A stretch of DNA of 64,000 nt, taken from positions 8,845 to 72,844 of the forward strand of contig CALUQR010000009.1 of assembly GCA_944322965.1 (NCBI GenBank), given 5' to 3'. Source of the DNA: Vulcanimicrobiota bacterium. Its GTDB lineage: Bacteria; Vulcanimicrobiota; Xenobia; Xenobiales; Xenobiaceae. The position numbers and the translations under genes are program-made. Position 1 is the stretch's first letter. Each line of letters opens with the position of its first letter. This document shows positions 30,120 through 62,689 of the stretch, one piece after another. The notes under the pieces are model-generated. The model was not told the origin of the DNA. It made no database searches and saw nothing but the letters and a program-made list of their open reading frames with translations.

Positions 30120-31022
30120 CTAATTCCAATAGCCCAACTCTATATCGGGTAAATGGGGATCGCACGGCTTATCGAGCTCGGTGGGGAAGAAACGCCGGGA
30201 TGGCTTAAACTCCGCCTCCCCGCGCCGCAAGTAGGTTACTTCTAAGACCTCCGGCATCTCTACGCCCGCTACCCGCCCCACTAGAGAATTACAATTATTG
30301 GCGTGGATATGGATAGGCTGGTGGCTCTTTAATAACTTCTGTAAGCAGCCCACAATAGCTTCCGAGCGGCGATAGTCGGTTAAGGAGTGCAACTCTAAGG
30401 CGATTTGCGAAAATTGCTCTAAGACGGAGCTGGGACAGGCGGCAAAGGTTGCATACTCCGCCCCCTCTACGTCCATCTTTAAAATTAGATCTCTCTTATC
30501 CTGATGGCCGTTCTCGGCCACTAGCTGGGCTAAGGGGCGACAATCTGGCTGGGGCTCCGTTCCGCAGACCCCTACCTTAAAGAAGTGGAACTGGGGATGA
30601 TCTTGGACTAAACGCTCAATCGTATGGTCGTAAAGGTAGACCTCATAACCCATTTGGGCCATATCGAGATCCCAGCTGACGTCGTCATTGACCCCAAAGC
30701 TATAAGCGATCCGCTCTTCCTCTGGAGGCGCCTCCCCTTGCCAGAAGATATAGCCCCCATCCCCTTCTTGAGAACCTAAGCGCACATATTTCCCACTCGC
30801 TACCTCGGCTACGGGCAGAGCGGCCTTAACTTGGAGCAGATGCTCATAGAGGGCCCGCCGCTTAGCCTTATCTTCTAAGACGTTCCACAACTCTTCCGTA
30901 GAGCGCATATCGCTAATAATGCGCTGATAAGCGTAGCTCTGACTGCCCCGCGAGAAACGCAGATCGCGATGGATACGCGCCATTTTACCCACAAACTTAG
31001 CCCAAGTAGCCTCTAAGCCCAT
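30120..31022 (-). CDS. FkbM-family SAM-dependent methyltransferase-like protein
   Basis: ILKMDVEGAEYATFAA matches the FkbM llKiDvEGaE motif. YSFGVNDDV resembles the G-loop region. Flanked by AT-rich intergenic DNA. Confidence 0.55.
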   Translation of the reverse strand: MGLEATWAKFVGKMARIHRDLRFSRGSQSYAYQRIISDMRSTEELWNVLEDKAKRRALYEHLLQVKAALPVAEVASGKYVRLGSQEGDGGYIFWQGEAPPEEERIAYSFGVNDDVSWDLDMAQMGYEVYLYDHTIERLVQDHPQFHFFKVGVCGTEPQPDCRPLAQLVAENGHQDKRDLILKMDVEGAEYATFAACPSSVLEQFSQIALELHSLTDYRRSEAIVGCLQKLLKSHQPIHIHANNCNSLVGRVAGVEMPEVLEVTYLRRGEAEFKPSRRFFPTELDKPCDPHLPDIELGYWN

Positions 31023-31192
31023 ACGTTTAAACGTCTCCAGATCTAGTAAAACTGTAATAATCTTTAAAAACGATCAATCTCTTATATAGAGCATTCTTTT
31101 TTTTGTCAATAGATCAAAAACGGTACATTTAAACTAGAACATAAAAAAATAAGACCCTCACCGCAACGGTGAAGATCTTACCTTTGGTCGTT

Positions 31193-31268
31193 TGGTGGAG
31201 ATAAAGGGACTTGAACCCTTGACCCCTTGCATGCCATGCAAGTGCTCTCCCAACTGAGCTATATCCCC
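31193..31268 (-). tRNA. tRNA-Ala (anticodon GGC)
   Basis: Reverse complement gives GGGGATA...TATCTCC-A-CCA with the diagnostic G3:U70 pair. Anticodon stem CTTGC/GCAAG with loop ATGGCAT. Confidence 0.8.
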
Positions 31269-31553
31269 GCGAACGTGAGTATTATACCGCATCATTTTTA
31301 GAAGTCAAGGGGGTAGAGGGCGACGCTCAGCCTAGATTCTCTAACTAATTAGCTTCCCAGGGCAAAGGAAGTTGCCTAGCTCAGTGCGAAGCTTGAAGGC
31401 GGTATTGTTTATTACTCCGGGCCTAGTTTTGAGACTCGGTCTAGAATCTACTCACCTTCCTGGAGGAGGTAGAGGCTCAACATAAAGTTACCTACTGGAG
31501 CGGGAGCTGACTCCCCGGCGCGGTGGGCAACCAGACATTCAGGAGACGTATAT

Positions 31554-31847
31554 ATGGCATACCGGCCTTGTAGATTTCGTAGCTCAGTATTGGGCATCTT
31601 CCAGTGCGAGAAACATATGTTCCAGCACTCCAGCCCAGAGATCTACAGTGAGCTCTATGAGTTCTGTTACGATAACGTACCCGATCGTTTTTGCGGTTAC
31701 GTCGATTTTGGCTTCAGCCTAGAGGGTGAGACCCCGCGCATCTTTATCAACTGCACCCACCCCTACCAGTCCCGTCCCCTACGCAGCTTCCGCGATTGCC
31801 TAGAAGAGTGTGACTACCACGATAAGGAAGGCGAATCTCTCGGCTAA
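31554..31847 (+). CDS. Small Cys-rich protein (7 Cys, 97 aa), candidate precursor/partner for the downstream radical SAM-SPASM enzyme
   Basis: Good SD (CAGGAGAcgtatatATG). Lower GC than neighbours. Followed by a weak terminator-like hairpin + T6 and then the rSAM gene. Confidence 0.45.
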   Translation: MAYRPCRFRSSVLGIFQCEKHMFQHSSPEIYSELYEFCYDNVPDRFCGYVDFGFSLEGETPRIFINCTHPYQSRPLRSFRDCLEECDYHDKEGESLG

Positions 31848-32001
31848 AAGCTCTACCTAGAGTAAGAGCGCTCGCCTGGGCTCGACCTAGGCGCTTTTTT
31901 ATCGAAGAGGGAGACCGCTCTCTACTTTTTGACAGTTGGAGAGCGGTTGCAATTAAGTTTAGGGGTCGCAGATTAGGGTATTCCCGGCTGCTAGGATTTG
32001 G

Positions 32002-33318
32002 ATGAGTTTTCAAGCCGAGACAAGTAAGATTGCTCAAGCTCCCTGTGTTCTGCGGCGCGAGTCGTTTGGGTGCGTCATCTATCGTAGAGCGGGCAACGAC
32101 TATATACCCTGCGACAATGAGGCCTTGGCCATCCTCCTGGCTTGTAAAGACCGACCCGTAGAGGAAGCCTACCAGGAGCTGGCCCCCACCGTCAGTAAGG
32201 TCTCCTTCGACCAATTTGTGCAACTCTGCCAAGCGGTGGGCATTATCCACGAGGGGCGCTTCGACGGCTATATCCTCGATAATAGCTTCGTCAACGTCAA
32301 AAACCACCTCAGCGCCCCCACTAAGGTCCATCTCCAGCTCACCCGCTACTGTAATCTCAAGTGCCCCTACTGTTGGGCGGAAGCCGGTCAACCCCAAGAT
32401 CGCGAGTTGACCTTGCGCGAGCTAGACGAGCTCTTCGCCCAGTTCTGCCAGATGGGGGTTTTCAATTTAGAGATTGGCGGCGGCGAGCCCTTAGGGCGCA
32501 AAGATTTCCCAGACGTAGTAGCCCTAGCTAATAGTTATGGGATAGTCGTCAACGTGGCTACCAACGCCACCTTAGCTACCAAAGCTCTAGAGGAGAAGCT
32601 AGAGCCCTTAAAGATCGATACTTTTCGCATTAGTCTGGAGGCGGGCAGCGAAAAGATCTACGACAATGTGCGCGGAGTGCGCTCTTACCGCAAGGCGATG
32701 CGCGGTTTAGCCCACTTGCGCCGCGCCTGTCCCCAAGCCAAATTTATCTTCCACTGTACCCTTTACAAAGACAACTACTCGGAGATCCCCTCCATCGTCA
32801 AAAAAGCGGAGGAGCTCAAAGTCGACAAGCTCCTCTTCAGTACCGCCCTGCCCGTAGGGCGCGGGGCCCTCAATCCGCGCCTCTTATTGAGCGCTGAGGA
32901 GACGCGCAAGAGTTGCGAAATTATCCAGAGCATCTCCCAAAGCAACCCCCTCAAGATTGAAGTGGCCAATCTGACCCCTCCCAAGCGCCCTCTGCGCCGG
33001 GCTTTCGAAGGCTTTGGCTGCGAGTGCGGGCGCACTTCGATCCATATCTCCTCCAATGGTGGAGTCTATCCCAGCGGCTTAATGAGCTGCTTCCCCGCCT
33101 GGAAGGCCGGGGACGTACGCCAGAGCAAGTTTTTTGAGATCTGGAATAACTCCCCCGTACTCAAAAAATGGCGCTCCGTCGCCAGCAACCGACGCTGCAA
33201 GAACTGCTCTAAATTTAATTTCTGCCGCGGCGGCTGCCGAACCCGAGCCTTTATCCTGACCAAAGATCTCCAAGAGCGCGACCCCTTCTGCTTATTACCC
33301 CCCGAAGAGGGAGTGTAG
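32002..33318 (+). CDS. Radical SAM peptide-maturase-type enzyme with N-terminal PqqD/RRE-like domain and C-terminal SPASM domain
   Basis: N-terminal LRRESFGCVIYRRAGNDYIPCDNEALAIL (PqqD-like RRE pattern). CNLKCPYC rSAM CxxxCxxC motif. C-terminal Cys clusters (CECGRTS...C..C....CRGGCR) typical of SPASM. Confidence 0.75.
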   Translation: MSFQAETSKIAQAPCVLRRESFGCVIYRRAGNDYIPCDNEALAILLACKDRPVEEAYQELAPTVSKVSFDQFVQLCQAVGIIHEGRFDGYILDNSFVNVKNHLSAPTKVHLQLTRYCNLKCPYCWAEAGQPQDRELTLRELDELFAQFCQMGVFNLEIGGGEPLGRKDFPDVVALANSYGIVVNVATNATLATKALEEKLEPLKIDTFRISLEAGSEKIYDNVRGVRSYRKAMRGLAHLRRACPQAKFIFHCTLYKDNYSEIPSIVKKAEELKVDKLLFSTALPVGRGALNPRLLLSAEETRKSCEIIQSISQSNPLKIEVANLTPPKRPLRRAFEGFGCECGRTSIHISSNGGVYPSGLMSCFPAWKAGDVRQSKFFEIWNNSPVLKKWRSVASNRRCKNCSKFNFCRGGCRTRAFILTKDLQERDPFCLLPPEEGV

Positions 33319-33357
33319 AGCGGAATACCCCTCGAGCACCTAGAGAAAGTTGAGTCT

Positions 33358-35028
33358 TTGCCTTTGCTGGAACCGGGCTTCCTACCACCCTTAGGTCTAA
33401 CCTTAGCCGACCTCCAAGCCAGCCCCTATCTCTTGCAGATCATGTGGGTGGTGCTCATCCTCTCCGTCAGCGGCGCTATCCTCTGCTGGTGGAGATCGGA
33501 GGCCAATAAATGGTGGTATACGAGCGCCTTTCTCGTCTGCCTGAGCAGCTTATCTATCGTCTTTTTGACGGGGGGATTCACTAGCAATTACTATCTGCTG
33601 CTCTACTTGGCCCTCATCGTCACCTCATTTAAAGGGACGGTCTGGGTCTGCTTGGGATTCTGTATCCTCTCTAGCTGCCTCATGTACTTCGATTATGGCA
33701 GCGGACTGGGATTACTCAATAATATCGCCGCCCTCACTAAGCTCCTCTTACTGCCCTTCTTCGCCATCATCGCCTTCTTCGTCAATACCGCCCTCAATAA
33801 ACCGGCTACCGATTACGAGAAGTTACAGAGCGAGAGATTAGAGCAGGCCTACTCCATCACCCGCCACCAGATAGCGGAAAAGGAAGAGAGCGAGCTCCAA
33901 CTTTACGACCGCCAGCGCAAATTATATAGTCTCTTGCAGCTCTTCCAAAAGCTGGCCCAACAGCGCTCCGAGGACGTCATCAAAGATAATGTGGTAGATT
34001 ACGCCCGAGCGGAGGTTAAATCCCAGGTGGCCTTCGTAGCCTTCAATGAAGATGGGCGCTGGGATACCTCCCGCTTCCGAGGGATCAACGAGATTATGGC
34101 CCGCACTATCAGCCAGAAGATAGAGGCCGGAATCTTCGCCAAAGTTATTAAGAATGGCGAGTATATCAATTACACCCACAATACCCACCATTTCGAGCAT
34201 AATAATTACCGCCGCCCCTTCGACGCCCCCGGGATGTCCGGTTTAGCCCTGCGCAACCTCTTAGTAATGCCTATGCAAGACGCTACGGGCGCTAAGCCCT
34301 TCGGCGTCTTAGCGGTAGCCAATAAGCTGATGGGGGACGCTTACGATCAGCACGACGAGGACTTCCTCAACCTCCTGGCTACGGAAGCGGCGATTACCAT
34401 CTCCAATATGCGCCTCTACCGCAAATTGGAGCGCTCTTACTACGAGACTATCTTAGGTTTAGCCCAAGCTATCGAAGCTAAAGATCCCTATACCCACGGC
34501 CACGTCTCCCGGGTCGAACAGCTCTCCGTCTTCCTCTGCCAAGCTATGGGGGTCGATACGGCCACCACCGAGATTATCGCCAAAGCGGCCATCCTCCACG
34601 ATGTGGGTAAGATCTCTATCCCCGACCAGATCCTCTTAAAGCCCGGCCCCCTCACCCCGGAAGAGTTTGAGGTTATGAAGACCCACACCATTAACGCCCA
34701 ACCTATCTTGAGCAATATTACCTCCCTCCCGCCCCAAGTGACGGAGATCGTCGTCCACCACCACGAACGTTACGACGGTAGCGGCTATCCCCACCACCTG
34801 AAGGGGCGGGCCATCCCCCTGGGGGCCCAGATTATTAGCGTCGCCGACTCCTTCGACGCCATGATCACCGACCGCCCCTATAGGCGCGGCCTCTCCTTTG
34901 AAGAAGCCTTAAAGCGTCTGGAAGACTGCCGCGAGACCCAATTCTCGCCCTACATCTTAGATAAATTCTTGCAAAATATCGTCAAAGTCAAAGATTTAAG
35001 TGCCCTCCCCCACTACTTTGACTGTTAG
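33358..35028 (+). CDS. Membrane-anchored GAF-domain HD-GYP phosphodiesterase (c-di-GMP hydrolase-like)
   Basis: 4 N-terminal TM helices. GAF-like middle domain. HDVGK and HHHERYDGSGYP HD-GYP signature. Confidence 0.75.
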   Translation: MPLLEPGFLPPLGLTLADLQASPYLLQIMWVVLILSVSGAILCWWRSEANKWWYTSAFLVCLSSLSIVFLTGGFTSNYYLLLYLALIVTSFKGTVWVCLGFCILSSCLMYFDYGSGLGLLNNIAALTKLLLLPFFAIIAFFVNTALNKPATDYEKLQSERLEQAYSITRHQIAEKEESELQLYDRQRKLYSLLQLFQKLAQQRSEDVIKDNVVDYARAEVKSQVAFVAFNEDGRWDTSRFRGINEIMARTISQKIEAGIFAKVIKNGEYINYTHNTHHFEHNNYRRPFDAPGMSGLALRNLLVMPMQDATGAKPFGVLAVANKLMGDAYDQHDEDFLNLLATEAAITISNMRLYRKLERSYYETILGLAQAIEAKDPYTHGHVSRVEQLSVFLCQAMGVDTATTEIIAKAAILHDVGKISIPDQILLKPGPLTPEEFEVMKTHTINAQPILSNITSLPPQVTEIVVHHHERYDGSGYPHHLKGRAIPLGAQIISVADSFDAMITDRPYRRGLSFEEALKRLEDCRETQFSPYILDKFLQNIVKVKDLSALPHYFDC

Positions 35029-35049
35029 GGGAAGAAGGACCGCTCTCTT

Positions 35050-35790
35050 ATGGATAGCCATATCAATTTTTATAGACCCTTACCCCTCTTGCCCGTCGGC
35101 AACCTTATCTGTCCCCCGGGCCGCTCCCTGACCTGCAAATTGCCGACCCAGCCCTACTTTAAAGAGCTAGTCGCCTACGTCGAGCGTCATACGGCCAACC
35201 ACTTAGCTATCGCCTACCTCAAAGAGGGGGAGGGAGAAGAGGCCTCAGGCGAGCTCTACCCCGTAACTACGGTAGTGAGCTTAGACCGCGCCCAACCCTT
35301 AGATAAGAATGCCAACTCCCCCTACTGGGAGTGGCAAGTCTCTAACGGAGTGCGGGCCCGCCTCCTCTACGAGCTGCCTAACCCCTCCACCCCCTTCCGC
35401 TTAGCCCGGCTCATGCCCTACGACGAAGAGGAGCAGCGTTTGAGTCTCACCCAAACCTTCTTCCTCATCCTCCCCATTTGGGCCCAGTTCCGCCGCCTGA
35501 GCGCCGGGATCGACTGTTACGAAAGTACCGTGCCCTCTTGCGGCAATCGCTACTTTAGCGGCTACATGCAAAATGTCAGCAAATTCCTAGAGGACGTCTA
35601 CCGCCATCTCCCTCTGAGCTACGCCCAAAAGATCGACTACTTAGCCGCCCACACCGTAGCCGATAAGGGGCGCTTCCTCATCCGGGCCTTAGCCGAGATG
35701 GCCGACTCCAAATACTACTTTAAAACGGAGCGGGCCGACTACGCTCGCCTCTGCCGCATCAATAGTAACGCCTTCACTAAATCTAACTGA
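35050..35790 (+). CDS. Hypothetical protein, last gene of the rSAM/HD-GYP operon
   Basis: Gap of 21 nt from the upstream gene. No recognisable motifs. Confidence 0.4.
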   Translation: MDSHINFYRPLPLLPVGNLICPPGRSLTCKLPTQPYFKELVAYVERHTANHLAIAYLKEGEGEEASGELYPVTTVVSLDRAQPLDKNANSPYWEWQVSNGVRARLLYELPNPSTPFRLARLMPYDEEEQRLSLTQTFFLILPIWAQFRRLSAGIDCYESTVPSCGNRYFSGYMQNVSKFLEDVYRHLPLSYAQKIDYLAAHTVADKGRFLIRALAEMADSKYYFKTERADYARLCRINSNAFTKSN

Positions 35791-35855: not shown

Positions 35856-36881
35856 CTATAAGACGGTGATGCTGCGGTGGCGCAGGTTGGCCCCGCCCTC
35901 CCCTAAGATCCACTCCCGCAAGCGGCGCACCCCCTCCTGGGCGCTGACTTGGGGCTTAAATTCTAAGTCGCGCTCCGCCTTGGCCTTATTAAAATAATTA
36001 GAGAGGGCCAACTGGTCGGCTACAAAGCGGGTCATCTTGGGCTCTTCGGCGATCCGCAAGCTGCGGTAGATCCCCTCTAAGAGGGCCCCTAAAGCGCGCG
36101 TCAAGCGGTAGGAAACTTTGATCTTTATAGGCGGAGCCCCCACTTGGGCCAAGAGCTCCTTAATCCAGCCCCAGAGATTGACCGCCGCCCCGTCGCCAAT
36201 AAAGTAGGCCTGACCGGCGCAGCGCTCTAAATGGGTGTAAGCCGCGATATGGGCCTGGGCGGCATTATCGACGTAAGTCAGATCGACTAAGTTGCGCCCC
36301 TCCCCCACCTGGAAGAGTTGGCCCGCATAAGCCCGCTCTACGACGCGGGGCACTAAATGGGGATCGTCGGGACCGTAAATGAGATGGGGGCGCAAGGCCA
36401 CGGTCCGCACTTGGGGGGAGTTGGCCGCCAAGACCTCCTGCTCCGCCAAGGCCTTAGTCTGGGCGTAGGCGCAATCGTAGAAGCTAGGATAGGGGGTAGT
36501 CTCATCGACGTAGGCAAAGTCGGTCGCGGGCCGATAGATGACGCTGGGGGTACTCGTATAGATAAAAGCCCCCACGCCCAAACGCCGACAGGCCTCTAAG
36601 AGGTGGCGCACGGCCCAAATATTGATGGGCTCGTAATCGGCGTAGCTACCCCAGATCCCCGCCTTAGAGGCCGTATGGTAGATGACTTCCATCCCCTGGG
36701 CGGCGCTAAAGACGACGTCTTTTTGGGTGAGGTCCCCGTAGATACAGCGTACCCCCAGCTTTTCCAACTGGGGTTGAGGGCGGCGGGTGATACTAGTCAC
36801 CTCGTCGCCGCGCGCCAAGAGCTGAGCTACTAAGGCCTTGCCCAGAAAGCCCCCCCCGCCCGTCACCAGCACCTTGGCCAT
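35856..36881 (-). CDS. oleD: NAD(P)-dependent 3-beta-HSD/extended-SDR family reductase, OleD-like
   Basis: TGGGGFLG Rossmann motif. YxxxK. Fourth gene of an OleA-B-C-D ordered cluster. Confidence 0.6.
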   Translation of the reverse strand: MAKVLVTGGGGFLGKALVAQLLARGDEVTSITRRPQPQLEKLGVRCIYGDLTQKDVVFSAAQGMEVIYHTASKAGIWGSYADYEPINIWAVRHLLEACRRLGVGAFIYTSTPSVIYRPATDFAYVDETTPYPSFYDCAYAQTKALAEQEVLAANSPQVRTVALRPHLIYGPDDPHLVPRVVERAYAGQLFQVGEGRNLVDLTYVDNAAQAHIAAYTHLERCAGQAYFIGDGAAVNLWGWIKELLAQVGAPPIKIKVSYRLTRALGALLEGIYRSLRIAEEPKMTRFVADQLALSNYFNKAKAERDLEFKPQVSAQEGVRRLREWILGEGGANLRHRSITVL

Positions 36882-36891
36882 AACTTGCCCT

Positions 36892-38577
36892 CTACTTTCT
36901 CTGCAACTCTTCCGTAGCCCAACGAGCCAATTCTTGGCGGTCGATCTTCACGTTGTGGCGCGGATCGACGGGGAAGGACTCTAAGAAGAGGACCTCTTCG
37001 ATCTGCTTATAGAGCTCGTTTTCGTCGTAACGCCCCAAGATCTGGCGCTTCAACTGCTCTTGGCCCTTCTCATCTTCGGGCAGAGAACCCGGCTTAGTCT
37101 CCACAATCAAGACGGGTTGCTGTTGGCCCCGCTCGCCCACCCCCACCAGGGCGCTGCGGAAGACGCGGGGATGGTTATTAGCCATACCCTCCACCATGAC
37201 GGGGAAGATGGTCCCCTTGGGGGTCTCCACCCGGTGGTCTTTGCGCCCACAGAACCAGAGATCGCGATTATTGTCGAAGTAACCCGTATCCCCCATGCGA
37301 TGCCACTTTCCGCCCCGCTCGTCGGCTATCTTAGCTAAGCGGTTGGCCTCCTCTTCTCGGTAATACTCCTGGGTGACGACCGGACCGTAGGCTACGATCT
37401 CCCCTACCTCCCCATCGGGTAAGACTAAGTCTTCGCTAAATTTCTCGATCGGTTGGTCGGTAATCTTAATGATGCGCACTTCCATACCGGGCACGGGCTT
37501 ACCCACACAGGTACCCGCCCCCTCGATAGTCCTTTTAGCCGCATGATCTAAGACAAAAGAACCGCTCACTAAAGCTACGGGCAGACTCTCCGTAGCCCCA
37601 TAGGGGGTGTAGACTTCGCCCCCTTCGCCCAAGACGGAGCGCAGATTCTCCAAAAGGTCTAAGCCGACGGGGGCTCCGAAGGTAATAACTCGCTCAATGG
37701 GCTCTAAGGAGAGCTCCTCATCCTGGCAGTACTGGGCCACCTTGCGCCAGATGGCGGGAGAGCCTTGACCGTTAGTAATATCAAACTCTTCGATACTGCC
37801 CACCAAGAGCGCCGGATCGCAGGCCGCCGGTTTGGAGGGATCGAGGCGGGGCAAGACCACGGTCATCCCCAAAGCTAAATCGAAGAGGCCAAAGAGGGGA
37901 TAGCCGGGCAGATCGAGTTCGCCCGGTTTAAAGTGGAAGAGGTCGCGCAAGTACTTGATCTGCTCTTGGAAGATGCGATGCTGGTAGACTACCCCTTTCG
38001 CCTTACCCGTGCTGCCTGAAGTAAAGAGGATGGCGGCCATATCGGTGGGGCGCACCGCAGCCACCGGCACGCTGCCCTGGTGGGAGGCGGCCTCCTTAGA
38101 GATATTGATACAGCCCGGGAACCACTCGGTGGCCGTGAAGTTATGCAAAACGCTCTTAAAGGGGGCCCGATGGAAGAGGCGATAGAGATGGAGGGCCCGC
38201 ATCCCGATAAAGGCTTGGGGCTCGACATGCTCGATACAGCGCAACAAGTTCTCCCGCCCCATGCCGGGATCGAGCAGGACGGGTACCGCTCCCAACTTAA
38301 AGAGAGCGAAGACGCAAGCGATGAGATCGGGGCCATTCTTTAAGCCCAAGAGGACGCGTTGACCGGCCTCTACCCCTCCCTCTTGGAGGACCTGGGCGTA
38401 ACTATCGATCGTCTGGCCCAGCTGCTTATAAGTCCAAGAGGCGTAACCTTTCTTGAGGGGGAAGATGATGGCCGCCTGATCGGGGCGCTCCTTAATGACC
38501 GGTCCCAGGCAAGAAGCGATATTAGCCTGGGCGCTAGCTCCCTGCCCTTCCGTGCGGGTACTTTTCGCTTTACTCAT
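36892..38577 (-). CDS. oleC: AMP-dependent synthetase/ligase (acyl-AMP ligase), OleC-like
   Basis: AMP-binding motif ILFTSGSTGKAKGV. C-terminal adenylation-domain conservation. Confidence 0.65.
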   Translation of the reverse strand: MSKAKSTRTEGQGASAQANIASCLGPVIKERPDQAAIIFPLKKGYASWTYKQLGQTIDSYAQVLQEGGVEAGQRVLLGLKNGPDLIACVFALFKLGAVPVLLDPGMGRENLLRCIEHVEPQAFIGMRALHLYRLFHRAPFKSVLHNFTATEWFPGCINISKEAASHQGSVPVAAVRPTDMAAILFTSGSTGKAKGVVYQHRIFQEQIKYLRDLFHFKPGELDLPGYPLFGLFDLALGMTVVLPRLDPSKPAACDPALLVGSIEEFDITNGQGSPAIWRKVAQYCQDEELSLEPIERVITFGAPVGLDLLENLRSVLGEGGEVYTPYGATESLPVALVSGSFVLDHAAKRTIEGAGTCVGKPVPGMEVRIIKITDQPIEKFSEDLVLPDGEVGEIVAYGPVVTQEYYREEEANRLAKIADERGGKWHRMGDTGYFDNNRDLWFCGRKDHRVETPKGTIFPVMVEGMANNHPRVFRSALVGVGERGQQQPVLIVETKPGSLPEDEKGQEQLKRQILGRYDENELYKQIEEVLFLESFPVDPRHNVKIDRQELARWATEELQRK

Positions 38578-38644
38578 AATTATCTAGTCAACTTTTCTTA
38601 AGATCGGTAGGCGGGAGATTCTCCCCGCCCGGCGGCGCTAACTC

Positions 38645-39547
38645 TCAGCGCTCTAAGAGCTCCTCTAAAGCCTGGATAACGACTTGGGGGGCGTCTTCTA
38701 AGAGGTAATGGTTGGCGGTCTCTATGGAGCGCGCCTCGGCGTCGGGATAGATACTCTGCCAGCGGGCCAAAAAGTCCCGCCCAAAGACGTGATCTTGGGC
38801 GCCCCACACTAACATCTTGGGCGCTCTACTGAGCCGCAATAAGCCCTGCTCCACCTCGACTAAGGTCTTATAAGAGGGATGGGAGGGCGAGAGAGGGACG
38901 TCGCACACAAAACGCAAGACGGCCACCCGGTGGGCCCAGGAGTCGTAGGGTGCTAAGTAACCGGCCCGCACCGCCGGGGAGAGGGGGTTAGAGGCGCAGA
39001 CCCGCAAAGCCCCGCGCACAAAGGCGTTAAAGCCCCGCACCAAGAGGGCGCCCAAGAAGGGCACGCGCGCTAAACGGATCGTCCAGGGCATACGCTTAGA
39101 GCGGAAGGCGGCGGTATTCATAATCATCACCCTCTTAATGCGCTCCGGGTGGCGCACCGCGTAACCTAAGCCGATAGGGCCGCCCCAATCGTGGACGACT
39201 AAGGTAAAGGGCGGCAAGCCCAACTTATCTACCAAAGTCTCTAAATTGAAGATGTGATTTTCCAGAGTGTAGTCGTAATCTTGGGGCTTGTCGGAGAGGC
39301 CCATCCCCAAATGGTCGGGCACTACTACCCGATGCTTATCCTTAAAATGCTGGACCAAAGCCCGGTAAAAGAAGGACCAGGTGGGATTACCATGGACGCA
39401 GAGGATAGGCTCCCCTTGGGGTGCGCCGGGCGCCGGCCCCTCGTCTACGTAGTGCAAGCGCTGCCCCTCGGCGGGCAGATAGAGATAATTAGATTTAAAG
39501 GGGTAGAGACCCCGCCAACTCTCAGCACCAGTTTGCTTCATTACCAT
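38645..39547 (-). CDS. oleB: Alpha/beta hydrolase of haloalkane-dehalogenase-like subfamily, OleB-like
   Basis: HGNPTWSFFYR and VVHDWGGPIGLGYA motifs (HLD-type). Confidence 0.65.
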   Translation of the reverse strand: MVMKQTGAESWRGLYPFKSNYLYLPAEGQRLHYVDEGPAPGAPQGEPILCVHGNPTWSFFYRALVQHFKDKHRVVVPDHLGMGLSDKPQDYDYTLENHIFNLETLVDKLGLPPFTLVVHDWGGPIGLGYAVRHPERIKRVMIMNTAAFRSKRMPWTIRLARVPFLGALLVRGFNAFVRGALRVCASNPLSPAVRAGYLAPYDSWAHRVAVLRFVCDVPLSPSHPSYKTLVEVEQGLLRLSRAPKMLVWGAQDHVFGRDFLARWQSIYPDAEARSIETANHYLLEDAPQVVIQALEELLER

Positions 39548-40557
39548 GCGATCTCCATCATCGAACAGTTTATACCACTACCAATTCCCATGAGACCTAC
39601 GCGATCCCCAGAGGTTATCTCCCCCCGCTCGGAGGCGATAGCCAAGGTAATGGGCGCCGAAGCGGGCCCGATATTACCTAAGAAGGGGAAAGTTAGAAAA
39701 GCTTTCTCTAAACCGATACCCAGACGCTCAAAGAGTAAGCGCTGATGGCGATCCCCCACCTGATGGCAGATAAAGCGCTTAATGCGCTCCGGACTCCAAG
39801 CCAAGGTCTTCTCCGCCATCTTCCAGGTGCGACTGGCCAGATCGATACCCGCCTTGAGCAGGCCCGTCTGGTTGGTGGCGATATCGGAGATCGTCCCCAC
39901 ACAGTAGCGGCAAAAGCGCGTATCGGCTAAGGAGACGTGGCCCACTACCTTATGACCTTGGGGAGCCAACTGACGGTTAGTAATTAAAGCCGCCACCGCC
40001 CCCGAGCCCAAAGTTAAGCCCGCAAAGCACTTCGAGAAGGTAGCCAAGTCGATGCGCGGATCTTCTAATTGGCGCACCGTATTCTCAATAACTTGGCGCG
40101 AATTTTCTACATCTACGATCAGCGCGGCCTCGATCGCCCCCTGATCGATAAGCTGGCCCATCTGAGAGATGCCGTTGAGGAAGGCCAGACAGGCGTTAGA
40201 AATATCGTAACTGGAAGTCGTCTCCGGCAGACCTAAGGCGCTATGGACCATACAGGCCATAGAGGGCTCAATAAACTCTTTAGAGACGGAAGTGCAAACT
40301 ACGCAGCCGATGCGCTCTAAGGGGATCCCTGAATCTTCCACTACCTTGCGGGCGATACGGGCCGCAATATCCGCCAGAGACTCCCCCTCCCCCCAAACTC
40401 GCCGCTCATTGACTCCGGAGAGGGCGCAGACCCAAGAGCTGGGGATGCCCAGACGTTGGAAGGTGGGAGTCAAGCGCTCGCAGATGGAGTTAGTCGTCAC
40501 CACCTGGGAGGGCAGTTCGTAAGCTAGCGATTGTAAATATACGTTCTTATGTAACAT
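39541..40557 (-). CDS. oleA: FabH-like thiolase (KAS III superfamily), OleA-like head-to-head condensing enzyme
   Basis: KAS-III-type N- and C-terminal domains (GIGSGINCSMMEIAW C-terminus). First in the oleABCD gene order with 7-nt overlap to oleB. Confidence 0.6.
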   Translation of the reverse strand: MLHKNVYLQSLAYELPSQVVTTNSICERLTPTFQRLGIPSSWVCALSGVNERRVWGEGESLADIAARIARKVVEDSGIPLERIGCVVCTSVSKEFIEPSMACMVHSALGLPETTSSYDISNACLAFLNGISQMGQLIDQGAIEAALIVDVENSRQVIENTVRQLEDPRIDLATFSKCFAGLTLGSGAVAALITNRQLAPQGHKVVGHVSLADTRFCRYCVGTISDIATNQTGLLKAGIDLASRTWKMAEKTLAWSPERIKRFICHQVGDRHQRLLFERLGIGLEKAFLTFPFLGNIGPASAPITLAIASERGEITSGDRVGLMGIGSGINCSMMEIAW

Positions 40558-45734: not shown

Positions 45735-48455
45735 TCAGCGGGCGACCTCTCCCACCACTAAGGCCACCGCCTCTTCGGCCCGCTCCACTAGGTGGAAGGT
45801 CAAAGCCTGACGGATAGGCTCGGGGATCTCTTCCAGGTAGCGCTCATTCTCCGCAGGCAAGATCACCTCGCGAATAGAGGCGTTATAAGCGGCCAGGACC
45901 TTCTCTTTCACCCCTCCGATAGCCATAACCTTGCCCACCAAGGTGATCTCGCCCGTCATAGCGATATCTTGGCGCGCCGGGCGGCCTAAGATGGCGGAAA
46001 TGAGGGAACAGGCCAGAGCTACGCCCGCCGAAGGTCCATCCTTAGGGGTGGCACCCTCTGGAACGTGGATATGGATGTCGCTCTTATAGTAATCCCACTC
46101 TACCCCGCGATCGCGCAAGAAGGCCCGCACCCAAGTGAGAGCGGCTCGGGCCGACTCCTTCATCACTTGGCCTAAGGAGCCGGTGAGTACCACCTTACCT
46201 TTGCCCGGGATAACGTTAGCTTCGATAGTTAAGATCTCGCCCCCCACCTGGGTCCAGGAGAGACCCTGGACTGAGCCCGGAGAGGGGTGGGGGTCAATCT
46301 TATCGCGCTCTGGATAGCGAACTACCCCCAAAAGTTGGCGCACCTGCTCCGCCCCTAAGGTAGGTAACTTGCGCTTAGGCCGCTTACTCTCCGCCACCTT
46401 GCGGGCCACTTTGCGCCCTAAGCTGGCGATCTCGCGCTCTAAACCGCGCACCCCCGCTTCGCGCGTATACTGGCGGATGACGGTGCGCAACCCCTCGTCA
46501 TTGACGTTAAAGAGGGCGGGGGTCAGCCCATTCTCCTCCTGCTGGCGCGGCAGTAAGAATTGGCGGGCGATGGCTAACTTCTCTTCCGTGGTATAGCCGG
46601 AGAGGCGGATAATCTCCATCCGATCGCGCAAAGCGGGAGGGATAGTATCTAAGACGTTAGCCGTCATAATAAACATCGCTTCCGAGAGGTCGACCGGAAT
46701 GCCGAAGTAGTTATCCTTAAATTCGCAATTCTGTTCGGGATCTAAGGCCTCCAGGAGGGCGTCGGAGGGATCGCCGCGGTAGTCGCGCCCCACCTTATCG
46801 ATCTCGTCGAGCATAATCACCGGATTGCGCGTGCCGGCATTACAGAAGGCTTGGATGATGCGCCCCGGCATAGCTCCCACGTAGGTGCGCCGGTGGCCGC
46901 GGATCTCCGCCTCATCGCGCACCCCGCCTAAGGAGGTGCGATTAAACTTGCGCCCCATAGTACTGGCAATAGAGCGCCCTAAAGAGGTCTTCCCCACCCC
47001 GGGCGGCCCCACAAAGCAGAGGATAGAGCCCCTATGGTGGGGTTGCAATTTGCGCACCGCCAAAAATTCTAAGATGCGCTCCTTGACCTCTTTGAGGCCG
47101 TAATGTTCCCGATCCAAAATCTCCTGGGCCCGGCGCAGGTCGAGATTATCCTCGGTGCGCTCTTGCCAGGGGAATTGTAAGAGGCGCTCTAGGTAGGTGT
47201 AGACGACATTATAGTCGGGGGAGGCGGAGGAGAGGCGGCGCAGACGCTGGACTTCGTGCAAGGCGTGCTGAGCGGCGCTCTCGGGCATACCGCTCTGGGC
47301 GATCCCCTCTTTAAACTTGCGGATATCCTCATCCTCGTTGATATCCTCCCCCAACTCCTCTTGGATAGCCTTCAAGTGTTGGCGCAAGAAATACTCTCGA
47401 TGGCCGCGGGCCATCTCCATCTCGGCCTTACTCTGGATCTTATTCTCAATCTTTAAGATTTCGATCTCTCGGGAGAGCAGGAGCGAGACCTTCTGCAAGC
47501 GCCTGCTGACGTCGATCATATCTAAGATGGACTGTTTCTCGCGGAAAGAGATATTGAGGTTAGCGGCTACTAAGTCGGCGATCTGGCCCGGATTGTGGAC
47601 GCTCGACATAGCCATTACTAATTCCGGAGAGATCTGGGCGTTGAGAGCGGCCATCTGGCGGAATTGGTGGGTGACGACCTGCAGAGCCGACTCCGTCTCC
47701 TCATCCTGGAGGCCGCGATCCTCTAAGATACTCACCCGCACTTTGGCAATAGGCTGACGGGCGGTAATCTTCTCGATGCGAGCGCGCACGATCCCGTGCA
47801 CGACTAAGCGGAAAGAACCGTTGGGGAGGCGCATAGCCTGCACGGGGGCGCAAATGCAGCCCGTCTTATAGAGGACCGTCTTGGCTAAACTGACGCTATC
47901 CGCTTTGCGCTTAGCCACGATAAAGAGGGGCATATCCTTCTCTAAAGCGTATTCTACCGCCTTACAGGCCGCTTCCGTCTCTACCGAGAGGGGCGCGATG
48001 ACGCTGGGAAAGACTAAGAGGTCGGGGGTGGGCAGCATCACCAACTCTTGGGACTCTAAAAGCGATAGACGCCTTTTGCGCCTCTCCTCTGGGGTGAGCG
48101 GCGGCTTAGGGGCGGGTTCAGCTTCCTCGTCCTCGGCGGAAACCTCTAAGACCCCTACCGAGCGCCCCTGAATGTCGACTATCTCTACCTTCTTCTCCCA
48201 CTTCCCCTGACTCTGGCGCTCTTTCAGCCCTTGGCGCTCCTGCCAATCGTCTAAGAGCGAATCCGTCAAGCGCTCCAAAGCGCTGGGGGCCTCGGGCGTA
48301 TCGCTATCGACTAGCAAAAACTCCTCATCCTCGCCCCCCGCGAGCGCCTCCTCCTGAACCGGCGGCGTCAACTTATCTTCTGCGGGCGCCCGCTCCCCCT
48401 CGGTTCCAATTTGCGACTCCTCCAGAGGAGGATTTTTCTTATTAGACTCACACAT
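45735..48455 (-). CDS. lon: ATP-dependent Lon protease (LonA) with acidic N-terminal extension
   Basis: Walker A GPPGVGKTS. Protease motif PKDGPSAGVA with catalytic Ser. LON N-domain. Confidence 0.95.
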   Translation of the reverse strand: MCESNKKNPPLEESQIGTEGERAPAEDKLTPPVQEEALAGGEDEEFLLVDSDTPEAPSALERLTDSLLDDWQERQGLKERQSQGKWEKKVEIVDIQGRSVGVLEVSAEDEEAEPAPKPPLTPEERRKRRLSLLESQELVMLPTPDLLVFPSVIAPLSVETEAACKAVEYALEKDMPLFIVAKRKADSVSLAKTVLYKTGCICAPVQAMRLPNGSFRLVVHGIVRARIEKITARQPIAKVRVSILEDRGLQDEETESALQVVTHQFRQMAALNAQISPELVMAMSSVHNPGQIADLVAANLNISFREKQSILDMIDVSRRLQKVSLLLSREIEILKIENKIQSKAEMEMARGHREYFLRQHLKAIQEELGEDINEDEDIRKFKEGIAQSGMPESAAQHALHEVQRLRRLSSASPDYNVVYTYLERLLQFPWQERTEDNLDLRRAQEILDREHYGLKEVKERILEFLAVRKLQPHHRGSILCFVGPPGVGKTSLGRSIASTMGRKFNRTSLGGVRDEAEIRGHRRTYVGAMPGRIIQAFCNAGTRNPVIMLDEIDKVGRDYRGDPSDALLEALDPEQNCEFKDNYFGIPVDLSEAMFIMTANVLDTIPPALRDRMEIIRLSGYTTEEKLAIARQFLLPRQQEENGLTPALFNVNDEGLRTVIRQYTREAGVRGLEREIASLGRKVARKVAESKRPKRKLPTLGAEQVRQLLGVVRYPERDKIDPHPSPGSVQGLSWTQVGGEILTIEANVIPGKGKVVLTGSLGQVMKESARAALTWVRAFLRDRGVEWDYYKSDIHIHVPEGATPKDGPSAGVALACSLISAILGRPARQDIAMTGEITLVGKVMAIGGVKEKVLAAYNASIREVILPAENERYLEEIPEPIRQALTFHLVERAEEAVALVVGEVAR

Positions 48456-49583: not shown

Positions 49584-51815
49584 CTAATAAAAGCTTGCGC
49601 TTGGCGCTGTGTCGCTCTTCTTCTCTTGGCCCGCCTCCCGCGCCCGTTGCGCCTCTCGGAGCCACTTAACTACCGTACGCCAACTGGAGTTTTCCGCCCC
49701 GCGGTCGATAGCCAGGATACGCTCTAAATAGCGCTCTCCCCCTGACTCGCCCTCTTCGAGGACCCAGCTATAGCGCAACCAGAGGAGCTGTAAGAGGCCG
49801 CGAGCTAAAGCGTTGCCCCTAAAGTAGACGATCCCTCCCCGCTGCCAAAAGCCTTGCCAATAGAGATCGATAGCTCGCTCTACCAGTTGCCGGGCGCGAT
49901 ACTTGTCCCCCCTACTCCAATAGAGCTGGCCCAATTCGCTATAAACCGTCGGTTGGTTGAGAGGATCGAGGCGCAAAGCCCGCTGATAGGAGGTTATAGC
50001 CTCCTGGAAATAACCAAACTTCTCGGCTAGGCGCCCTTGGACGATCCAATTAGGAGCGCCTAGGGGGTCTAAATGGATCGCTCTCCTACTTAGCTCTAAG
50101 ATCTCGCGCGCCTCAGAGGGCGAGGGGTTAAAGGCGGTTGCCCCCGCCAAAGCGGCCCACTCGCGCCAATAGCTACCGATTGCGGGCGCCACCTGAGCCG
50201 CCTGGGCGTAAGCCTGACGAGATTTAACCCATTCCCGTTCTTGTTGCCACGAGCGCCCCCAGCTGGCGTAGTAGGCCCCCTGCCAAAATGGATAGAGAGA
50301 GAATAAACCTCCTAGAGCGATTACCCCTACCGCTATCTTTACAGTGGCAAGACCTAAGGGGGGCCACTCCATCTCCGCCGCGGGACGCAAGCCCCAGGCG
50401 CAACCCGCCAAAGAGAAACCCCAGAGGGGTAAGGTCAAAAAGTTGCTCTCTAAATCGAGTTGGGCGTGTAGGAGGAGGAGTAAAGCTCCCAACCCCCATG
50501 CCCAAGCTAAACGTCCCTCCTCCCCCAGAGGTTTAATCCCTAAGCTAGCTACCCCCCACAGCCAGTAGAAGGAGGCGGCCACGGCTACTATCAGCGCGGG
50601 CCAGCCCGCTTCGCATAAAATATCTAACCCCAAGGCGTGGGGGCGCTGACTGTACCAGCGCAGATCGCGCTGATAGAGGGCGTAAAAGCGTTGGTAATTA
50701 TCGGCTCCCACCCCTTGGAGAGGATGATCGGTAATAATCCCTCTAGCCACCCGATAGAATTCGCGCCGCGCTAAGAGCGACTCGCTCTGACCGCTCACCT
50801 CCCCTTGGCGCTGGCCCTGCCACAGGATTTGGCGCCCCACCTCTAGCCCCCCTAAAGCTAGGAGACCTAAGAGAAAGATCCCTCCCACAACGCCTAAAAA
50901 GCGGCGCGCTGAGGGGCGGGGGTAGAGATTCCACGCTCCCAAAAGGAGGGCTCCCAACCAAGCGGGAGCGAGGTAAACTAGATTATTTATAACAAAGACG
51001 CCCCAGGTAAAGAGCGCTCCCGCCATCTCGTAGCGCCACCACTCTCCAGCCCCTATAGGCCGCTCCCCAGGCTGCCGACTATAATAGATAGCCACCGCCA
51101 ATACGGCCCATCCCCCTAAAAGCCAGGCGCTGCGTCCGTAAGTAAAGAAGAGGGAGAAGGCCGTAGCTATAGCGAGAAGGTTATCGCCAATTCTCAGCCC
51201 CAGCGACTCGCTCTGAGCGCCCTGCCATAGGCGCCCTAAGGTCAAAGGCCAAGTAGCTAGGAGAAAGGCGGCCAACATATTGGGCTGGTAGAAGGTCCCG
51301 CCCAACTCAAAGTTATCCCCCAATTCGCCCCACTGTTCACTGACCGTCCAGGAGGCCGCTAAGACTAGGGCTACTAAAACTTGCAGCGCTCGCCCAAAGC
51401 TCTCCAACTCCCCGCGCTGCCAACGGCGCGCCCCCCAGGCGCTCACCCAAAAGAGGAGGATCCCCGTCGCTAAGGGCCAGGCTCTAGCTAAGCTCTCGAG
51501 CCCATTGGCCGCCCGCCCACTGGCCCCCAAGAAGAGGCCCCCACCTAGGAAGCTTAAAATTAGTAGAGGGAGATCGCCCCGCCTCCTAGGGACCGCCAAG
51601 ACTAACCCCCAACAACTTAGGAGACAGACTGAGAGGGCTAAGCCCCACTGGGCTAAGTCGGAGCTACCCCCAGCATCGGAACTAAAGAGCGTAGCTAAGC
51701 CGATCTCCCCTAGGCCAACCCACCCTCCGGCAGGGGGGAGAGCCAGCGCTCCCCTCCCAGCAGCTGAGCTAGGGAGGTTAAGGCGGGAAAGGCTAAGATA
51801 GAAAGCAGCCCCCAA
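49584..51815 (-). CDS. O-antigen ligase/Wzy-like polytopic membrane protein fused to C-terminal TPR repeats
   Basis: YGRSAWL and QRPHALGLDILCEAGWPAL match O-antigen ligase motifs. C-terminal TPR-like repeats. Confidence 0.65.
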   Translation of the reverse strand: MGAAFYLSLSRLNLPSSAAGRGALALPPAGGWVGLGEIGLATLFSSDAGGSSDLAQWGLALSVCLLSCWGLVLAVPRRRGDLPLLILSFLGGGLFLGASGRAANGLESLARAWPLATGILLFWVSAWGARRWQRGELESFGRALQVLVALVLAASWTVSEQWGELGDNFELGGTFYQPNMLAAFLLATWPLTLGRLWQGAQSESLGLRIGDNLLAIATAFSLFFTYGRSAWLLGGWAVLAVAIYYSRQPGERPIGAGEWWRYEMAGALFTWGVFVINNLVYLAPAWLGALLLGAWNLYPRPSARRFLGVVGGIFLLGLLALGGLEVGRQILWQGQRQGEVSGQSESLLARREFYRVARGIITDHPLQGVGADNYQRFYALYQRDLRWYSQRPHALGLDILCEAGWPALIVAVAASFYWLWGVASLGIKPLGEEGRLAWAWGLGALLLLLHAQLDLESNFLTLPLWGFSLAGCAWGLRPAAEMEWPPLGLATVKIAVGVIALGGLFSLYPFWQGAYYASWGRSWQQEREWVKSRQAYAQAAQVAPAIGSYWREWAALAGATAFNPSPSEAREILELSRRAIHLDPLGAPNWIVQGRLAEKFGYFQEAITSYQRALRLDPLNQPTVYSELGQLYWSRGDKYRARQLVERAIDLYWQGFWQRGGIVYFRGNALARGLLQLLWLRYSWVLEEGESGGERYLERILAIDRGAENSSWRTVVKWLREAQRAREAGQEKKSDTAPSASFY

Positions 51816-51883
51816 CGAGCTACCCGCTCTAGGCTGACAGCCCTCGTGCGCCCGGAAGTAGCTGGGGCTCCCATAGGTTCCCC

Positions 51884-62668: not shown

Positions 62669-62689
62669 GACTCTAACTAGCGCGGGGGA

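Follow-up and report, generated by a model that had tools for sequence, protein, structure and literature searches.

A small cysteine-rich protein gene and a radical SAM-SPASM enzyme gene inherited as a pair in the Xenobia

We analysed a stretch of 64,000 nucleotides (hereafter the window) from a Vulcanimicrobiota bacterium of the class Xenobia (GenBank assembly GCA_944322965.1, contig CALUQR010000009.1, positions 8,845 to 72,844), focusing on a gene of 97 codons, orf97, and on the gene directly downstream, which codes for a radical S-adenosylmethionine (SAM) enzyme that we call rSAM. The locus is an operon passed down vertically in the Xenobia within the Vulcanimicrobiota (Eremiobacterota), and its conserved core is the orf97-rSAM pair. 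Our preferred reading, to which we give a probability of about 0.45, is that the two genes serve protein maturation as a dedicated pair, in the manner of QhpD/QhpC or SCIFF, the product being an intracellular metal-binding or cross-linked protein. An earlier note on the same DNA, written from the letters alone, had proposed a locus for a ribosomally synthesised and post-translationally modified peptide (RiPP) with orf97 as the candidate precursor. The four open reading frames (ORFs), the tRNA-Ala, the hairpin followed by six T and the Shine-Dalgarno sequence that it listed are all present.

A constrained small protein, its neighbouring enzyme and their ancestral setting

A scan of one genome per species yielded 35 orthologous loci (L001-L035), to which metagenome loci were added. 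In every orthologous locus (about 45, all from the Xenobia of the Vulcanimicrobiota/Eremiobacterota) orf97 has exactly 97 codons and its product is 88-98% identical, while in the same genome pairs the identity is 42-70% for rSAM, 77-95% for rplK and 55-88% for rplA. The substitutions that separate orf97 from its orthologues are overwhelmingly third-position changes (for instance 6, 1 and 44 at the first, second and third codon positions). The Nei-Gojobori proportion of nonsynonymous differences (pN) is 0.02-0.075, against 0.03-0.165 for rplK, and the synonymous sites (pS) are saturated; nonsynonymous divergence in orf97 comes to less than half of the rplK value. The third-position bias and the low pN at saturated pS mean that orf97 is a real protein-coding gene, and these figures indicate a constraint stronger than that on ribosomal protein L11 (rplK). 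An RNA gene, a candidate prompted by the extreme conservation, was rejected on the same codon-position and synonymous-site evidence, and no Rfam family besides tRNA was found over the stretch. The codon composition, which the earlier note had called atypical, is ordinary: the GC content at third codon positions (GC3) is 0.63, within the 0.61-0.75 of the adjoining genes.

The orf97 product is acidic (isoelectric point 5.1) and has seven Cys and four His, with no N-terminal signal sequence evident in its translation. Residues R4, P5, C6, R9, G14, F16, Q17, C18, H21, H25, Y31, C38, P43, C47, F52, G53, C67, H69, C82, C86 and L96 are invariant in an alignment of 22 family sequences; in a further homologue (L119), Ser replaces H21 and the seven Cys, H25 and H69 are kept. 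Seven Cys and two His (H25 and H69) are hence invariant in the family and a third His (H21) nearly so. Conservation extends over all 97 residues, with neither a leader/core split nor a variable core. No relatives were found in Pfam, NCBIfam, PADLOC or the PDB, including a profile search of the PDB and a Pfam scan of each member. An exhaustive hidden Markov model search of 1.84 billion cluster representatives and a profile search of 5.8 billion proteins returned, as distant homologues, only members of the family itself. The wide searches gave about 44 family clusters among the 5.8 billion proteins, all of 94-100 residues, some labelled Candidatus Calescibacterium or Armatimonadota and lying on contigs of 22-70% GC; a 301-residue repeat protein (P0073) was judged to be a spurious relative. 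The orf97 product is most likely a cytoplasmic, small metal- or iron-sulphur (Fe-S)-binding protein.

The earlier note suggested searching other genomes for homologues of orf97 next to radical SAM genes, and orthologues of orf97 do stand there: wherever an orthologous locus includes sequence 5' of rSAM, in about 31 genome loci and about 14 metagenome loci, the gene immediately preceding it on the same strand is orf97, at a distance of 14-240 nt. Flanking genes vary among loci while the pair persists, and the adjacency has outlasted a divergence that leaves rplA at only 55-60% identity and has exchanged the genes around the pair, which supports a functional tie between orf97 and rSAM. There is no room for an alternative small precursor ORF, as the spacer between the two genes shrinks to 14-60 nt in some lineages. 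No conserved 5' leader was seen, the regions upstream of orf97 failing to align beyond close relatives; the motif TCAGGAGACGTAnATATG at the orf97 Shine-Dalgarno sequence is kept among the loci of the gut clade.

Two terminator-like hairpins occupy positions 31873-31930 between the two genes, a region with a fold z-score of only -1.0. A hairpin between small gene and maturase, part of the layout described in the earlier note, is a repeated feature: a GC-rich hairpin, differing in sequence, stands just past the orf97 stop codon in at least 10 of 25 orthologous loci. We regard the tandem hairpins and T-runs as a candidate attenuator, which probably holds orf97 expression above rSAM expression.

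The enzyme carries the motif CNLKCPYC at residues 117-124, with C117, C121 and C124 in place, and matches the Pfam families Radical_SAM (PF04055; 4e-24, 86 bits against a cut-off of 29.5) and SPASM (PF13186; 2e-8, 34.6 bits against 21.5). The SPASM motif is a C-terminal arrangement of seven Cys, CX9-15GX4C ... CX2CX5CX3C ... C, which binds two auxiliary clusters. The C-terminal Cys of rSAM are C399-x2-C402-x5-C408-x3-C412 and C430, plus C340 and C342. Throughout the rSAM family no Cys stands four residues past the conserved Gly, where the motif calls for one, which leaves only three conserved Cys as candidate ligands of auxiliary cluster I (Aux I) and suggests an open coordination site.

The AlphaFold2 model of rSAM (predicted local distance difference test, pLDDT, 89) begins with a β1β2β3-α1α2α3 domain at residues 15-78 (strands 15-20, 23-28 and 33-38; helices 39-50, 53-60 and 66-78; pLDDT >90), and the N-terminal segment that the earlier note had quoted as PqqD-like falls inside it. 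The top Foldseek match of the model is SuiB (E 1e-22, template modelling score 0.75, 447 columns), over the full length including the RiPP recognition element (RRE), followed by SkfB, PqqE, CteB and anSME. A sequence profile against the PDB found PqqE at 8e-29, SkfB at 5e-24 from query residue 19 and SuiB at 3e-17 from residue 12, the alignments with SkfB and SuiB extending over the N-terminal region. Taken together, fold and profiles support a predicted RRE-radical SAM-SPASM architecture, that of peptide-modifying maturases, for the 438-residue protein. The architecture proposed in the earlier note is in this respect upheld, save for its PqqD label; as the N-terminal domain taken alone has no significant sequence match (see below), the RRE assignment is drawn from the topology of the fold and from the alignment with SuiB over the full length.

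Comparison with the NCBIfam equivalogs WgkB, MftC, PqqE, StsB, PapB, KxxxW, GeoRSP, ScmE/F, AhbD and NirJ places rSAM below every cut-off (WgkB 152 against 650 bits, MftC 145 against 265, PqqE 133 against 381, AhbD 135 against 500), in keeping with the statement of the earlier note that the combination was not recognisable as a described class. The rSAM family is sharply bounded, with about 39 proteins that are 41-100% identical over their full length, after which bit scores fall from 350 to 122. Its members are labelled Candidatus Bruticola, Eremiobacterota or 'Armatimonadetes', Bruticola itself belonging to the Vulcanimicrobiota, class Xenobia. Labels that conflict with the synteny and with the 88-98% identity of orf97 are attached to L010, L012, L016, L017, L025 and L030 (all six Burkholderiales), L026 (Selenomonadaceae) and L004 (Riflebacteria); these public metagenome-assembled genomes (MAGs) are probably mislabelled bins.

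The gene order secE-nusG-rplK-rplA ... orf97-rSAM is repeated in the loci with upstream sequence. A tRNA with the Ala GGC anticodon stands just 5' of orf97, on the + strand, in 15 of the 15 related loci tested, and is inverted only in the window genome. Since the tRNA occupies the same site in the relatives, this is ancestral synteny and not an island: rplA - tRNA-Ala - orf97 - rSAM is the ancestral order across the Xenobia lineage, and the tRNA-Ala is no integration site. The earlier note had seen an acquired island in the tRNA and the AT-rich DNA beside it, which does not hold, as the locus is present at the same site in all relatives, GC3 is ordinary and no integrase is present. The features near orf97 that are specific to the window are the inverted tRNA and an FkbM-family methyltransferase gene, with no counterpart in any related locus; both suggest that DNA was inserted or inverted locally between rplA and orf97 (30120-31268), in a region that coincides with a dip to 43-46% GC. 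Concerning the tRNA itself, it is in tandem duplicate in L002, L003 and L008, and in L021 (9244-9318) the tRNA 5' of orf97 is reported by ARAGORN as tRNA-??? with a four-base anticodon, ggca, which is either an assembly indel or an unusual tRNA.

Eroded enzymes, homologues without an enzyme and the possible role of the pair

In the maturation pair that we favour, the N-terminal RRE domain of rSAM would dock the orf97 protein and, wherever none of the three Fe-S motifs has been lost, as in the window, the enzyme would modify it post-translationally. The modification would most likely be an intramolecular cross-link at one Cys, a thioether of the type formed by QhpD, PapB and the SCIFF maturases. 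The mature protein would stay intracellular, the process being the maturation of a protein, with no secreted peptide; the hairpin and T-run past orf97 would keep its expression above that of the enzyme. In most lineages a co-transcribed transmembrane (TM) GAF-HD-GYP protein may tie the module to cyclic-di-GMP signalling, and a Lon-N-domain protein would be a late addition of the gut clade. The analysis establishes that the genes are real, the selection on orf97, the domain architecture and fold of the enzyme, the constant adjacency and the synteny; binding, modification, its chemistry and the signalling link are what we infer.

Several lines of evidence weigh against this reading. The AlphaFold2 model of the orf97 product, from an alignment of 18 sequences, reaches only pLDDT 49, too low for a fold search. 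The N-terminus of rSAM has no match to Pfam PqqD (PF05402) at E <= 0.1, and a profile of this domain alone against the PDB found no RRE structure, only insignificant matches to troponin C and L14. A further point is the state of the clusters among the 55 distinct rSAM orthologues. Every cluster Cys conserved across the full-motif members of the family is kept in 26 of them, the window copy included. Twenty lack C340 and C412, lost together, which we take from the SPASM motif to be Aux I ligands. The other nine ('noRS') lack in addition C117 and C121 of CxxxCxxC, and the three classes are nested (full motif; minus Aux I; minus Aux I and CxxxCxxC). In the noRS copies (L032, L099, L101, L129; P0031, P0036-P0039), which are 82-87% identical to one another, SxxxQxxC, NxxxQxxC or SxxxHxxC replaces CxxxCxxC, and this suggests catalytically dead yet selected 'pseudo-rSAM' proteins. 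Among the eroded proteins identity remains at 68-87% across the three domains, and orf97 is intact upstream of them. The ratio of orf97 to rplK divergence is the same in the two kinds of lineage, 0.37 in the intact and 0.33 in those without Aux I. Erosion of the Fe-S motifs in about half of the orthologues means that catalysis is not universally needed, and the equal ratios, together with intact orf97 genes beside eroded enzymes, make the constraint on orf97 and its Cys/His set independent of the radical chemistry of its partner. The series from intact enzymes through loss of Aux I to loss of the radical SAM cluster offers a natural experiment in which radical enzymes lose catalysis but keep a role.

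Homologues of orf97 that have no rSAM neighbour also count against the maturation pair. These proteins (51-88% identical) keep the seven invariant Cys and the two invariant His. Those of 71-88% identity lie directly downstream of the gene for an orphan protein, p330, with no rSAM nearby, and the divergent copies (51-73% identical) lie in unrelated housekeeping contexts, for instance beside CT398-like and purA genes, in the order CT398-like Zn-ribbon protein - orf97 - flavin adenine dinucleotide (FAD) protein - purA. In the MAG GCA_016199555.1 both types occur, an rSAM-linked orf97 (L148:5675-7287) and a p330-linked one (L084:3162-4502), respectively 89% and 82% identical to the window copy, so that the two types can be paralogues within one genome; several metagenomes likewise contain both at similar GC.

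The p330 family (about 310-330 residues) has an invariant N-terminus, MNPEIRFRV, which looks ribbon-helix-helix-like, and a conserved GSELLxARLxEGFxW. It is always directly upstream of rSAM-less orf97 homologues (examples are L078:7001-7996, L081:6879-7808, L084:3162-4151, L087:3667-4647 and L100:4970-5929). Neither Pfam nor the PDB has a significant match to it, and homologues are absent from the window and from L001-L035. In one marine clade an HD-GYP protein is encoded 1-2.5 kb from the p330-linked copies, a weak hint of a recurrent link. Homologues of 95-98 residues between CT398-like coiled-coil/Zn-ribbon and FAD-protein/purA genes were seen in L121 (5163-9199), L077, L124 and L125, at 35-53% GC, and those on the 22-29% GC contigs L134, L137 and L142 match a Candidatus Calescibacterium protein (P0088).

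The strongest alternative, which we hold to be less probable than the maturation pair, is that the orf97 product is no substrate but a stable partner (a small Fe-S or Zn electron carrier, a sensor or a regulator) in a lasting RRE-mediated complex with the rSAM-like protein, the radical chemistry being aimed at another molecule or, in the eroded lineages, at none. That the invariant Cys and His persist in lineages where rSAM is missing is what such a partner would show, as is the nested loss of Aux I and then radical SAM Cys under purifying selection that continues on all three domains. The independence of orf97 constraint from the cluster status of its partner points the same way, and conservation over the whole length is usual in folded proteins that interact with several partners. 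RRE domains, however, are known to bind peptide substrates, and the nearest structural matches of rSAM all modify a peptide encoded beside them. Every cluster Cys is retained in 26 of 55 orthologues, that of the window among them, and a hairpin setting orf97 above rSAM fits a substrate-to-enzyme ratio better than a 1:1 complex.

Another alternative is that there is no direct functional link, orf97 and rSAM being neighbours by inherited order and the enzyme acting on, say, a cofactor or a tetrapyrrole. In NCBIfam rSAM scores almost as high with AhbD, NirJ and AhbC, which are tetrapyrrole enzymes, as with peptide maturases, and orf97 evidently functions elsewhere without rSAM. The survival of the adjacency through the divergence of rplA and the change of flanking genes, the spacing down to 14 nt and the RRE that the fold gives to the 438-residue enzyme (to our knowledge tetrapyrrole radical SAM enzymes have none) make this improbable. 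A classical RiPP cluster on an acquired island, with orf97 as a leader-plus-core precursor that is processed and released, is the least credible of the alternatives: the enzyme architecture, the small Cys-rich ORF directly upstream with its hairpin and the adjoining tRNA and AT-rich spacer all recall one, and of the precursor claim of the earlier note the constant position upstream of rSAM does stand, but locus and tRNA-Ala are syntenic in all relatives with ordinary GC3, no protease or exporter/transporter gene was found in the operon (ORF translations and Pfam), the precursor would have to exceed rplK in conservation over its whole length with no leader/core division, its homologues occur without the enzyme, and catalytically dead enzyme orthologues are retained.

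Enzymes of this class are known, but in the databases and papers searched we met no description of the client family, of its degree of conservation, of its paralogues with a p330 partner or of a stepwise loss of Fe-S motifs inside a single orthologous group. In the literature we found no paper joining SPASM with HD-GYP and nothing on the orf97-rSAM system in Eremiobacterota. Genome mining for radical SAM/SPASM enzymes with an adjoining small gene usually yields secreted peptides or peptide-derived cofactors. Here the presumed client is an entire protein of 97 residues, slower in its evolution than ribosomal protein L11 and without a relative in Pfam, NCBIfam or the PDB, in phyla with almost no cultured members. 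Should the enzyme modify orf97, it would be the second well-defined SPASM enzyme that matures a functional protein, after QhpD/QhpC, and would open a way into what appears to be a core function of Eremiobacterota from the gut and the environment. One might speculate further, at rather long odds, that the family of 94-100 residues with seven Cys and two to three His is an unrecognised, near-essential small metalloprotein or protein-derived cofactor precursor in several uncultivated phyla (Eremiobacterota, Calescibacterota), with lineage-specific maturation partners (rSAM in Xenobia, p330 elsewhere), the nested cluster loss recording the passage from a radical enzyme to a non-catalytic chaperone for the same client. 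A small Cys-rich ORF, a radical SAM gene and a tRNA standing together are not in themselves a sign of a mobile natural-product cluster.

Neighbouring genes and coordinates of the features

The four + strand ORFs are separated by 154, 39 and 21 nt (Table 1). The earlier note took them as one co-operonic set, which is not a conserved unit: the HD-GYP gene is missing in some lineages and the 246-residue gene is confined to the gut clade.

Table 1. Positions in the window of the orf97-rSAM locus, its signals and the genes around it (domain limits approximate)
Feature	Position	Strand	Remarks
FkbM-family methyltransferase gene	30120-31022	-	
tRNA-Ala(GGC)	31193-31268	-	ARAGORN; Rfam tRNA 66.6 bits
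Shine-Dalgarno AGGAG	31541-31545	+	8 nt ahead of the orf97 ATG
orf97	31554-31847	+	97 aa, 7 Cys
Terminator-like hairpin 1	31873-31893	+	8 bp, 6 GC; then CTTTTTT
Terminator-like hairpin 2	31906-31923	+	then ACTTTTT
RRE-radical SAM-SPASM enzyme (rSAM)	32002-33318	+	438 aa
rSAM, RRE-like part	32044-32235	+	
rSAM, radical SAM core	32335-32805	+	
rSAM, SPASM part	33019-33297	+	
GAF-HD-GYP membrane protein	33358-35028	+	556 aa
GAF-HD-GYP protein, TM region	33412-33801	+	
GAF-HD-GYP protein, GAF part	33964-34401	+	
GAF-HD-GYP protein, HD-GYP part	34462-34947	+	
Lon-N-like protein	35050-35790	+	246 aa
oleABCD-like cluster	35856-40557	-	four genes, convergent
Full-length Lon protease	45735-48455	-	LON_substr_bdg, AAA and Lon_C

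The 556-residue protein matches GAF_2 (1e-8) and HD_5 (3e-39, 135 bits against a cut-off of 27.2) in Pfam, contains HHERYDGSGYP and HDVGK, and has four to five hydrophobic N-terminal segments at residues 19-148. This bears out the membrane GAF-HD-GYP protein of the earlier note, and the protein is predicted to be a membrane-anchored cyclic-dinucleotide phosphodiesterase. Its gene comes after rSAM in most orthologous loci; housekeeping genes stand there instead in L013-L017.

The 246-residue protein, 'unknown' to the earlier note, can be given a likely identity. The window copy alone has no Pfam match, but 5 of 8 orthologues match PF02190 (LON_substr_bdg; best E 3.5e-8), and a profile of the family finds Lon N-domain structures (3ljc at 7e-4, another at 0.019). 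It appears to be a stand-alone Lon N-terminal (substrate-binding) domain, hence Lon-N-like, and a gut-clade accessory: the gene is found only in L001-L009, L031 and L090 and is fast-evolving, at 30-45% identity. The full-length Lon protease gene of the window is 10 kb from it.

Next to the locus runs a convergent cluster resembling oleABCD (olefin / β-lactone pathway), whose products are a thiolase (PRK09258, 403 bits), an α/β-hydrolase, a ligase like olefin β-lactone synthetase (504 bits, cut-off 900) and an OleD-like reductase (371 bits, cut-off 580); oleD, oleC and oleB are syntenic in the gut-clade loci. ORFs at 24001-25590 (+ strand), 49584-54280 (- strand) and 58229-63904 (- strand) code for an RTX-repeat protein with a Peptidase_M91 effector-like domain and for Wzy_C/TPR and TPR proteins, among them two Wzy_C/TPR membrane proteins resembling O-antigen ligases, the larger TPR protein having 1479 residues. 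As to anti-phage defence, PADLOC gave generic matches only (rSAM-viperin, HD-Cas3), with none for orf97 or the 246-residue protein.

Comparison with known systems

QhpD matures a protein subunit, QhpC, through Cys thioethers that run from Cys to Asp or Glu (PMC10114670), PapB joins Cys to Asp or Glu, and SCIFF, PqqA and MftA pair with SPASM enzymes (PMC10114670, PMC9413430). QhpD/QhpC resembles the present pair in that a SPASM enzyme acts on a small Cys-rich protein (about 80-110 residues) which remains a functional intracellular or periplasmic protein and not a free peptide; orf97 is of similar size to QhpC and likewise rich in Cys, Asp and Glu. The two sequences, however, are not similar, orf97 lacks a cleavable leader or signal peptide, members of its family occur with no rSAM, and none of qhpA, qhpB, qhpE and qhpG is present.

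The SCIFF peptides with CteB or Tte1186, and PapA with PapB, share with our pair a lineage-conserved Cys-rich product encoded directly upstream of an RRE-radical SAM-SPASM enzyme, and a housekeeping-like rather than antibiotic character. PapB gives a weak NCBIfam match to rSAM (67.8 bits against a cut-off of 340), and CteB is among its structural matches. Unlike SCIFF and PapA, orf97 is twice as long, is conserved end to end and has no repeated CX3D/E, only a single conserved C47-x3-D51.

The best sequence relatives of rSAM are found in the PqqE/PqqD/PqqA and MftC/MftB/MftA systems (by the PDB profile and the NCBIfam scores given above), where a highly conserved ribosomal precursor is likewise paired with an RRE-dependent SPASM enzyme and the product is a physiological cofactor, not an antibiotic. 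The differences are that rSAM scores far under both equivalog cut-offs, that its RRE is fused to the 438-residue enzyme and not a separate protein, that the locus has no downstream tailoring or peptidase genes, and that orf97, at 97 residues, exceeds precursors of 20-50 residues.

SuiB, which introduces the Lys-Trp cross-link of streptide into SuiA, is the best structural match of rSAM over three domains and has the same RRE-radical SAM-SPASM order. Only 19-20% of residues are identical, rSAM reaches 68 bits with the NCBIfam model for KxxxW maturases, where the cut-off is 500, and a KxxxW motif is absent from orf97. Streptide, moreover, is a small secreted peptide under quorum-sensing control.

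A precedent for the nine noRS orthologues is provided by TIGR04347, an annotated SPASM family named 'pseudo-SAM/SPASM', a name which we take to mean that the canonical radical SAM Cys are missing. The match of rSAM to that model is 102 bits against a cut-off of 525, and the loss seen here differs from it in having taken place inside one orthologous group whose other members are intact.

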